Positions 6,001 through 9,000 of a stretch of DNA of 64,000 nucleotides are shown piece by piece. The stretch's first letter is position 1; each line of letters begins with the position of its first letter. The stretch lies in the NCBI RefSeq assembly GCF_988243305.1, contig NZ_OZ547138.1; one strand, 5' to 3'. A program made the position numbers. This DNA comes from a plasmid.

Positions 6001-9000
6001 AATAGCGTCAGCAACATATATAAAAATAATCTGCATTCCTGAAAAATATCGTGGTTGTGAAATATTTAATTTTTACCCCCTTTTATGGGGGATGAAAAGC
6101 AGGCTGTCAGGCTATAACTGAACGCGGTTTCTGGATTTTGGTGCTAATGTCACATCTTTCCATTCACAGCTGCTTCCGGGGATACGCTCTTTGCGTCGTA
6201 TTATACGGGAGTTCTGACACACAATAATTAAGCCATTGTCTGCCGTCTGAAATGGCATTATAGCGATGTTTATATCTTCTGTTGCAGGAATATAACTGAC
6301 TTTCTTTTCACATGTATTGGTGTATATGACAACTCTGAATTTTTCTGCGGACATTTTCAATCCTCTTTTAAACCAGAATATCCCGTGAGGGCATTCTTTG
6401 TGAAAAAGATGCCGGAAAAATTCCGGCACGGGGATTAAACCTGTTGTGGTTCTGAGTTATCCGGAGCGGTTACCGGTTCGCTGACATCCGGAACCTTTTC
6501 CGGGGCAGGCATGACCAGTGGACGTGTCAGGGCTGTAAGTCCTTCACCGGATAAACCCACCTCTTTCAGCAGGGAGTCGATGAGCGGAGCCTGTGTACGG
6601 TAAGCCAGAGCGGCGGTTACTGCCTGTTCAGCGAGATTTCCGCCACTTATGTCGGTTGTTGCTGTTTTACCGCGGGTAACACCGCCATTCAGACCATCCA
6701 CCTGAATGATTTTAATACCGTCAATGGATTTCATTGGTTCTGTGGACTTCTCTATGACGGCAGGTAATGCATCCAGCAGGGCAAGACGGAAGCGGAGGCT
6801 GGTCTGCTCATCCGAAAGCACGTTAATGGCATCGTTCAGTGCGCGCTGTGCTTCTGCTTCTGCCAGACCTTTCTGACGGGTGGCCTCCGCCAGTTCAATA
6901 ATTGCTGCTGCCTGGAGTTCGGCTGCTTCTTTTTCAGCCTGTGCGCGAACCGTCAGTTCAACCGCTTTCGTTTCAGCTTCCTGAGCAGCAGCAATCAGGG
7001 CAACCTGTTTGGTACGGTCGGCCTCCGCAGTCTGGCGGGTGGTTTCCACATCCTGCTGGGCCTGTACGGCCTCAGCCAGTGCTTTACTTGCCCGGGCTTC
7101 TGCCTGTGACTGCTCTTCCGATTTTGCCGCCACGGCAATGGCTCTGGCCTGGCTGGCGATTTCGGTTGCCTGCTGTTGCTCAATTTCCCGTATGGCCACT
7201 TCCCGTTCGGCTTCGACCTGGCGGGTACGCACTATCTGCTGTCGTTCGATTTCGGCTTCCTCTATCTTACGTTCAGCCAGAATTCGCGCGGATTCTGCTT
7301 CACGACGTCGTTCAGCTTCAATAGCAGCAATACTGGCACTCTGCTCTGCCGTACGGGTTTTTACCCGTTGTTGTTGCTCCAGAGTCATGAAGGCTTCCTG
7401 CTGTTCAATCTCCAGACGTCGGGAGAGTGCATCCCGGTTTTTTTCCCTGATGGCCACTTCAACATCCTGCTCAACTTCGTTGCGTTCGCGGCGACGACGT
7501 TCTGTTTCCTGGGTCAGAAGGGTCAGGCCTTCAGCATCAAAGGCATTGTCAGGATTAAAATGTACCCGTGCAGTCTGGTTGAAACTTGTCAGCGACACAC
7601 TTTCAAGCTCCAGACCGTTTTTGGATAAGTCTTCCGCAACGGTGTTCTGCACACCCTGAACAAAGTTCTCGCGGGCATCCTGTAAATCCTGCATGCTCAT
7701 TCTGGCCGCCGTGGCCCGTAGGGCATCAACAAATTTATCCTCGACCAGACTACGCAGATCTTCAGGTGTGAGCGTGCGTTGTCCCAGCGTCTGGGCTGCA
7801 GTGGATATTCCTTCGGCTGATGGTTTTACCCGAAGAAAAAAGGCAACGGCAACATCAACACGCATACGGTCGCGGGTTATGAGACTTTCAGCCGCTGCAC
7901 GACTGACTTCCAGCTTCAGGGTGTTCATGTTGACGGGAATTGTTTCGTGAAAAATGGGCATAACAATTGCACCGCCACTCATTACCACTTTTTGGCCTCC
8001 CAGACCTGTGCGGACAAAGGCCTGCTCTGCCGATGCCCGGCGGTACAGGCGGGCAAATATCAGCCCGATAACGAACAGGGTGAGGACCAGCGCTATAACG
8101 GTAAACAACCATCCCGGAAGATTAAACATAGTGAGAACCTCTGTATATGTCGGGATTAAAGAACATCCGGCCAGGGATTCAGTTCGCCCAGCCAGCGGGA
8201 ACCGGAAAGACGGCAGACAATAATCACTTTGTCTCCTCGTCTGAATTCTTTCCCGGCCTCCGGCTCCAGCAACAGGTAATGAACCTGCCCGAAGCGGTCT
8301 GTGAAGCGACCTTCACAGGGGGAACCCGCCACTGCGTGATAACCAGTGATGGTGGCCATACAGCCGATGAATGCCTCCTCGGTGAGCGCCGTTGTTTCAT
8401 CACGGGGTAACCAGGGGGCAATCAGTCTGCCGGTGCGGTGTACGAGAGGACATGTCAGCAGCAGGCAAAGTGGTGCAAGGAGAATGTTCGGGGCAGGAGC
8501 CTGCAGCAGATGAATAATAAGACCCTGCAGGAGAATGCCGGATATACCAAAAAAACCTGCCAGCATACAGAGGACGATCAGCAGGGGGATCCGTCCGATG
8601 TTCAGCCAGTCCAACGCCTCTCCTGTCAGACCCTCCGGTAAATCAGGTGTATCCATAGCTGAAGAGAGGGAGTGTCCGCAGAGCAGGGCGATAAGTTCAG
8701 CGATACCAGTAAGCAGAACAAAAGTCAGGGCTGCCAGATAGGGTGCGTTATACGCGGTAAGTAACGTCAGTGTCATTTTTCCTCCTGTGGCAGGTCAGTC
8801 AAACAACATTATGGCGTGAAGCTTCCGCTTCTTTAATTGTCAGAAGAAGCATATCGTCAGTCATCAGAAGACAAGGGGATGTCTGCAGGAGGGGATGATA
8901 ACAACAGAAGCCTCACGCCGGAATGCGCTTTATGACAACCGGAGAGGACGGATAATCAAAATTGGGACATCCACATCAGCAAACCGCTATTTGCGAAAAA

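Follow-up and report, generated by a model that had tools for sequence, protein, structure and literature searches.

A plasmid-borne YqiJ-YqiK flotillin pair in the traC-pilI slot of I-complex conjugative plasmids

Described flotillin-NfeD systems and the plasmid pair

Operons that encode an SPFH protein together with an NfeD-type partner have been described previously (PMC2636767), and the functional model adopted here is that of NfeD-FloA from Staphylococcus aureus and YuaF-FloT (YuaG) from Bacillus subtilis, where FloA-NfeD stabilises unfolded membrane proteins (PMC11222466). The flotillins of Gram-negative bacteria are still without a clear function, mutants of Escherichia coli yqiK being almost free of phenotypes (PMC10434171, PMC2636767). 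Here we examine such a pair on a plasmid, in a stretch of 64,000 nucleotides (the window) of contig NZ_OZ547138.1 (assembly GCF_988243305.1), where a yqiJ-like and a yqiK-like gene lie on the minus strand between regulators of conjugative transfer and the genes of a thin pilus. The pair is a new member of a known family, and its genes, ordinary in themselves, have already been annotated and named in papers; what gives it value is not a novel type of system but a question that can be put to the test, the function of a flotillin copy that strong purifying selection has maintained within an operon regulating conjugation.

The closest described relative is the chromosomal yqiJ-yqiK operon of E. 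coli (SPFH2a; Hinderhofer et al. 2009, PMC2636767), with which the plasmid pair shares gene order, the 26-nt length of the intergenic spacer and Pfam architecture, and also the cytoplasm-facing topology that is predicted for the plasmid flotillin. The plasmid pair differs in having another C-terminal tail and a shortened first YqiJ loop, in being placed within a transfer-regulatory operon rather than beside glgS, and in carrying a candidate structured leader of 266 nt in front. Compared with YuaF-FloT and NfeD-FloA, the genes described here are plasmid-borne, reside in a Gram-negative host and are known from sequence alone. A further relative is QmcA-YbbJ, which according to the part of PMC13086221 that cites Tan et al. 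2024 is likewise an SPFH protein and an NfeD-family partner from one operon, forming a cytoplasm-facing cage of 26 heterodimers at the inner membrane. However, QmcA belongs to the stomatin type (SPFH1) and lacks the long helical region of flotillins, and qmcA lies upstream of ybbJ, the reverse of the yqiJ-yqiK order.

Both open reading frames (ORFs) are complete and on the minus strand, with yqiJ at 8156-8776 (206 aa) and yqiK at 6435-8129 (564 aa). They are separated by a spacer (8130-8155) that holds the yqiK ribosome-binding site AGAGG and has the same length in the E. coli K-12 chromosome and in the divergent plasmid lineage described below; the Shine-Dalgarno sequence of yqiJ is AGGAGG. 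The flotillin begins with a single hydrophobic segment within residues 1-30, a presumed membrane anchor, followed by the Band_7/SPFH domain (PF01145, residues 35-183, E 1.3e-18), a long Ala/Glu-rich helical region, the Flot domain over its full model length (PF15975, residues 402-526, E 1.3e-38) and finally a Pro-rich acidic tail. The long coiled coil reported by the first-pass annotation, which was made from the sequence by a model, corresponds to this helical region as judged by composition only: residues 202-420 form a run of 219 positions lacking Pro and Gly, and 64% of residues 191-440 are Ala, Glu, Gln, Arg or Lys. All length variants of plasmid YqiK are in-frame insertions or deletions in the same region. 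Among the copies examined (P0002-P0020) the unit AEARASKAL occurs one to three times and AE two to four times, and deletions of 15, 21 or 30 residues always keep the frame, which we read as repeat slippage.

The upstream partner is a polytopic membrane protein that matches YqiJ_N (PF21001, E 2.6e-15) and YqiJ_OB (PF07290, E 2e-14), retains all 12 invariant residues of the family and ends in a β-barrel with the NfeD-type OB fold. These two YqiJ families were the only ones found in its Pfam scan, with neither a Pfam NfeD profile nor a ClpP-type protease domain; YqiJ is therefore a short, protease-less form that is related to NfeD at the level of fold. Its position directly upstream of an SPFH gene, on the same strand and 26 nt away, is that of an NfeD-like partner, and the first-pass claim of a complete flotillin with such a partner is thus borne out. 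Among solved structures there was no sequence-level match of YqiJ or YqiK to any PDB chain, and a fold search gave a match for the OB domain of YqiJ only. We also considered whether the flotillin could be an orthologue of FloT (equivalog NF058507 of NCBIfam), which we rejected as its score of 81.5 bits falls far under the cutoff of 700; the two are related only. The identity of the genes as a functional, plasmid-specific YqiJK pair, made up of an SPFH2-type flotillin and a short NfeD-like membrane protein, is secure.

Nearly every E. coli carries the chromosomal counterpart as well: chromosomal yqiK, at approximately 75% DNA identity, is found in 5,423 of 5,426 complete genomes, 227 of which additionally possess the full plasmid pair. 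Relative to K-12 the plasmid YqiK is 82% identical over 541 residues and YqiJ 55% identical. Across Escherichia, Salmonella, Citrobacter and Phytobacter the chromosomal YqiK proteins share 90-92% identity with one another and 77-81% with the plasmid clade, the corresponding values for YqiJ being 65-86% and 56-64%. Homologue searches of a 5.8-billion-protein database returned two plasmid lineages only, and no sequences intermediate between the plasmid and chromosomal clades. Two YqiJ variants (P0126 and P0154, 78-89% identical) had looked like intermediates, and turned out to be frameshifted or indel-bearing copies of the common plasmid allele. Given these identity levels, the lack of intermediates and the difference in GC content (54% for the plasmid pair versus 48% for the K-12 operon), the plasmid genes represent an old, separate clade rather than a recent capture from E. 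coli. This is a plasmid-only clade outside the Escherichia/Salmonella/Citrobacter chromosomal group, and the pair is a vertically inherited paralogue of yqiJ-yqiK.

Selection and loss among plasmids

To gauge selection on the pair we used a sole divergent relative, the metagenome contig k141_149405 (ENA ERZ27268043; hereafter L008), in which the gene order is traB-traC-yqiJ-yqiK-pilI followed by pilL-M-N-O-P-Q. Synonymous divergence (dS) from L008 was 0.54 for traB, 0.68 for traC, 0.58 for yqiJ and 0.76 for yqiK, and the values for the pair being in a similar range to those of traB and traC, it has co-diverged with these regulators. The ratio of non-synonymous to synonymous divergence (dN/dS) was 0.22 for traB, 0.23 for traC, 0.11 for yqiJ and 0.045 for yqiK, and the L008 copies retain exactly 206 and 564 codons. 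The same picture emerges among intact E. coli plasmid copies, where nearly all differences are synonymous: the ratio of non-synonymous to synonymous polymorphism was 0-0.08 for yqiK versus 0.24-0.43 for traC, and in one comparison of plasmid yqiK copies we counted 36 synonymous against 5 non-synonymous changes. The pair is therefore under strong purifying selection, stronger than that on traB or traC.

These values bear on two alternatives. The genes could be a decaying passenger, an old and functionless hitch-hiker that persists through linkage to essential transfer genes while being deleted, and the losses described below would fit this: at least three kinds are seen, and scar-bearing lineages are successful and conjugative. 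It is nonetheless contradicted by the low dN/dS, 0.05-0.11 for the pair and below that of the essential traB and traC, by both ORFs having remained intact and of unchanged length after a dS of approximately 0.6-0.8, and by within-clade changes that are almost all synonymous with every helical-region indel in frame; we regard it as very improbable. Nearly as improbable, and best seen as a speculative lead, is a protection or competition module, in which a flotillin cage would shield the inner membrane of the donor against pilus-specific phages, membrane-active colicins or rival plasmids. SPFH proteins do act at the membrane, and an accessory pair that is often gained or lost, in a variable slot beside genes for surface structures, is what one might expect of such a module, but a yqiK dN/dS of 0.045 and a near-invariant sequence are unlike those of arms-race genes. 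Neither protein matched a family of the PADLOC 2.0 defence models at E <= 0.01, nor did the pair match any PHROG family. We know of no defence system that includes a YqiJK pair.

L008 is also informative as to what the pair travels with. Its traB, traC, yqiJK and pilI resemble those of the window (71-94% amino acid identity), whereas pilL and pilM are IncI1-like (78-82%), so that the pair moves together with the regulatory segment and not with the structural genes of the pilus. L008 is a mosaic I-complex-like contig with a recombination break-point between pilI and pilL.

The traC-pilI slot that holds the pair in the window is variable and belongs to the transfer-regulatory segment of a non-R64 I-complex backbone (IncB/O/K/Z/I-gamma types). 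Over the region of the locus the sequence matches E. coli plasmid NZ_CP145695.1 at 100% identity; this plasmid is typed IncI-gamma/K1, MOBP, MPF_I and conjugative. Among 551 PLSDB plasmids whose traBC segment matches at over 90% DNA identity, 258 carry intact yqiJK in this slot, 96 carry a scar in the form of a 144-bp in-frame fusion ORF (type A), 75 retain only 181 bp of yqiK after two deletions (type B), and the remainder are truncated or interrupted by insertion sequences. The type A scar arose through loss of 2,198 bp between paired copies of a 10-bp direct repeat, CAGCCCTGAC, on the minus strand, with the upstream end-point inside yqiJ (8724-8733) and the downstream end-point near the 3' end of yqiK (6526-6535), both placed by alignment of the deletion variants; simulating this deletion gave the 144-bp scar ORF with 0 mismatches. 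The same junction is found on backbones whose traBC differ by approximately 7% (CP088449.1, H35/H124, versus NZ_MG299135.1/NZ_MG299133.1, H38/H67), which suggests either a recurrent, repeat-mediated deletion hotspot or a scar that was moved by recombination. In the type B scar, seen on an IncK2/Z-typed plasmid, the spacer and the hairpin that follows yqiK are gone too; other IncK2/Z-typed plasmids carry intact copies. Together the intact locus and the two scars offer simple lineage markers within the IncB/O/K/Z/I-gamma resistance plasmids, and these natural knock-outs on near-identical plasmids are a ready genetic system for the function of a YqiJK cage and for whether membrane scaffolding influences plasmid transfer or cost.

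Outside this backbone the slot has other contents. In R64 (IncI1) it holds traD on the same strand, which is not universal either, since the pESBL slot is empty, and an unrelated traD was also present in the one IncI1-type traBC plasmid that we examined. R64 TraD is an unrelated protein of 188 aa; the idea that it might be a diverged YqiJ was rejected (BLASTP E 17). R64 traD is reportedly not essential for transfer. Unlike what is expected of core I-complex conjugation genes (tra/trb/nik/pil), yqiJK does not occur throughout the group; it is an accessory pair.

A slot with traD in R64-type plasmids, no gene in pESBL and either yqiJK or its scars here might simply be a tolerated insertion site, and the pair might be cargo serving host physiology, benefiting or modulating the host in, for instance, stress tolerance, motility or biofilm formation for reasons other than conjugation, and possibly mixing with or overriding the chromosomal YqiJK. 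We consider this possible, if on the doubtful side. Its 82% identity to host YqiK makes mixed oligomers plausible, and strong purifying selection fits any real function, host cargo included. Ties of chromosomal yqiK to swimming behaviour and ampicillin resistance, in the form in which they are cited by PMC7824781 and PMC10434171, would fit too, as would the proposal, made for IncK plasmids, that their yqiK is a candidate repressor of biofilm formation (PMC7824781). On the other hand, chromosomal yqiK mutants have weak or no phenotypes (PMC10434171, PMC2636767), the pair has diverged in step with traBC, and within the Enterobacteriaceae no other plasmid backbone was found to carry it. A further point against host cargo comes from L008, in which the traC stop codon overlaps the yqiJ start codon, tying expression of the pair to the transfer regulators.

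Regulatory sequences, conjugation data and possible functions

Position on the same strand between a NusG-like regulator with traC and the pil genes, as claimed in the first-pass annotation, was confirmed by the ORFs and by annotation: upstream of the pair lie traC, traB and, beyond them, RepA, and downstream lie pilI, pilL, pilM and pilN. The window coordinates given in this section refer to the minus strand. The traC-like transfer regulator gene (9043-9708, annotated traC in related plasmids) is directly upstream, and traB (9849-10490) encodes a NusG/RfaH-like protein, a candidate processive antiterminator of a traC-yqiJK-pil transcript; its match to NCBIfam RfaH has an E value of 8e-10, under the curated cutoff, and it is annotated as a member of the NusG family. 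Directly after traB is a canonical intrinsic terminator with an 8-bp GC-rich stem and T7 (9801-9821). This terminator is conserved with T6-7 in three I-complex lineages, namely the window, L008 (approximately 770-800) and an IncI1-type plasmid (L006, approximately 1970-1995), and its conservation suggests that traC and all genes downstream may depend on read-through promoted by TraB. In L008 the overlap of traC and yqiJ leaves no room for a promoter, and yqiJK must therefore be co-transcribed with traC there. In the window, a scan for promoters gave no convincing sigma-70 promoter directly upstream of yqiJ, with one match overlapping the start codon. We infer a single transcript initiated at traB, whose extension would depend on the NusG-like TraB.

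Between traC and yqiJ the window carries a spacer of 266 nt (8777-9042), absent from L008, whose predicted minimum free energy is -97.1 kcal/mol versus -67.1 for shuffled sequences (z -6.6), and whose long hairpin, in the predicted fold, pairs with the yqiJ Shine-Dalgarno sequence, the predicted anti-Shine-Dalgarno stretch being CCUCUCC. Five plasmids with yqiK synonymous divergence of up to 0.085 differ at 0-3 positions of this spacer, which is thus more conserved than neighbouring synonymous sites. This candidate structured RNA could be a leader or riboregulator, or else a target of TraB or TraC. Rfam held no family for it. Its being a repeated mobile element was rejected, as it is unique in the window and does not form a clean inverted repeat, and so was residual similarity to the region upstream of chromosomal yqiJ, which amounted to a 15-nt match at chance level. 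Downstream, a hairpin with a short T run follows the yqiK stop codon (6409-6429; fold z -4.0), a putative weak terminator or mRNA-stabilising stem before pilI; in L008 the stem persists, one A-U pair having become G-C by compensatory change. Then follows pilI (6112-6354), which opens the thin-pilus cluster and carries the annotation PilI in identical plasmids.

Data on conjugation are available for a plasmid with the deleted locus. In pMS7163B (IncB/O/K/Z), studied by transposon-directed insertion-site sequencing of conjugation, traC ends at 13353, ORF 160 spans 13620-13763 (144 bp) and pilI starts at 13844 (PMC10286972). ORF 160 is the type A scar, so this plasmid has the scar only in place of the pair. 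Its traB and traC are required for conjugation (log2 fold changes of -5.4 and -5.3, respectively), whereas insertions in ORF 160, pilI and pilK were enriched after mating (+2.6, +2.9 and +3.2; PMC10286972, S1 Table A). These values hint that the scar-pilI-pilK segment (approximately window 6112-6435 plus the scar), or its transcription, restrains transfer, and the same-direction shifts of the three genes are consistent with one transcription unit. In the same data set insertions in pilL, pilM and pilN were neutral (PMC10286972).

How might the pair act? Our tentative preference, held with somewhat less than even confidence and built on analogy with described cages, is an accessory flotillin-NfeD cage that is co-expressed with the transfer genes and would ease membrane load or aid the assembly of pilus and secretion apparatus. 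In its favour count the identity and age of the plasmid clade, the purifying selection, and the signs of coupling to transfer regulation (gene order and overlap in L008, the terminator after traB, the compensatory change in the hairpin after yqiK and the pMS7163B insertion data). The pair would be transcribed within the transcript that runs from traB and traC to the pil genes, probably through read-through promoted by TraB, and its products would consequently appear together with those of the transfer genes. On the model of QmcA-YbbJ, FloA-NfeD and flotillin cages, YqiK may assemble into an oligomeric cage that faces the cytoplasm on the inner membrane, YqiJ being anchored within or underneath the cage. 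The least certain step is the last, that in donors this cage might serve as an accessory scaffold or as a quality-control device for membrane proteins, which would lessen the load placed on the inner membrane by the type IV secretion system and type IV pilus or help these to assemble. Such a pair would be conditionally useful and not essential, and easily lost, nearly every E. coli host having yqiJK on its chromosome.

Several observations weigh against this accessory role in transfer. Of the 551 traBC-backbone plasmids, 293 lack the pair or carry it in destroyed form, most scar-bearing plasmids are still typed as conjugative, and neither yqiK nor any remnant of it was found in 1,434 plasmids with an IncI1-type TraB (60-80% identity). 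No ops-like element was found at the locus, GGCGGTAGNNTG giving two one-mismatch matches that lie far from it and are fewer than expected by chance. With only the scar, pMS7163B conjugates well on surfaces (PMC10286972), and yqiJK is therefore not needed for surface conjugation in hosts that carry the chromosomal pair. E. coli deleted for chromosomal yqiK, or for all four of its SPFH genes, grows without defect in both rich and minimal medium (PMC10434171), and in Pseudomonas lacking all nine SPFH proteins swimming and swarming, which use flagella and type IV pili, are unaffected (PMC13086221). Finally, co-expression with transfer genes is no proof of a function in transfer.

The first-pass annotation had considered that the pair could relate to assembly of the pilus or transfer apparatus, and had named sporadic occurrence among related plasmids, together with a deletion that has no phenotype, as grounds against it. 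The suggested link gains indirect support from the traC-yqiJ overlap of L008 and from selection stronger than that on traB and traC, and a required part is contradicted by the scar of pMS7163B. Distribution is indeed sporadic, with intact copies in a portion of the traBC-backbone set and none in IncI1-type plasmids, and pMS7163B conjugates with its scar; in this part the objection stands. The annotation was also right that the role of the pair in conjugation is not established: our literature search found no paper linking a flotillin to I-complex plasmids and only passing mentions of yqiJ and yqiK, such as their naming in one figure legend (PMC8549364).

A stronger version of the transfer link is a dedicated module that TraB and TraC would switch on along with the pilus and secretion genes, in which flotillin cages would organise or protect the inner-membrane sites at which the type IV pilus and secretion system (I-type) are assembled, with translation gated by the 266-nt leader. 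We think this unlikely. It would, if true, raise the efficiency of liquid mating or lower the cost of derepressed transfer, and no other flotillin has so far been shown to work for conjugation in Gram-negative bacteria.

Flanking segments of the window

Between pilI and pilL the window contains a variable segment of low GC content (34-43%; 4500-6100). It encodes a polytopic membrane protein of 295 aa (5032-5919, minus strand), with no match in Pfam, NCBIfam, PADLOC or PHROG, and on the opposite strand an ORF of 146 aa (4599-5039), which had no match in PHROGs, the only collection against which it was checked. Related plasmids have an ORF of 111 aa in place of these two.

On the other side of the transfer regulators, the Rfam pseudoknot PK-repZ (174 bits) was detected at 11030-11180 on the plus strand, upstream of a rep gene at 11148-12224. 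A repZ-type pseudoknot in this position fits an I-complex replicon, and together with a weak CopA-like antisense match on the strand opposite PK-repZ it describes an ordinary I-complex replication control region.

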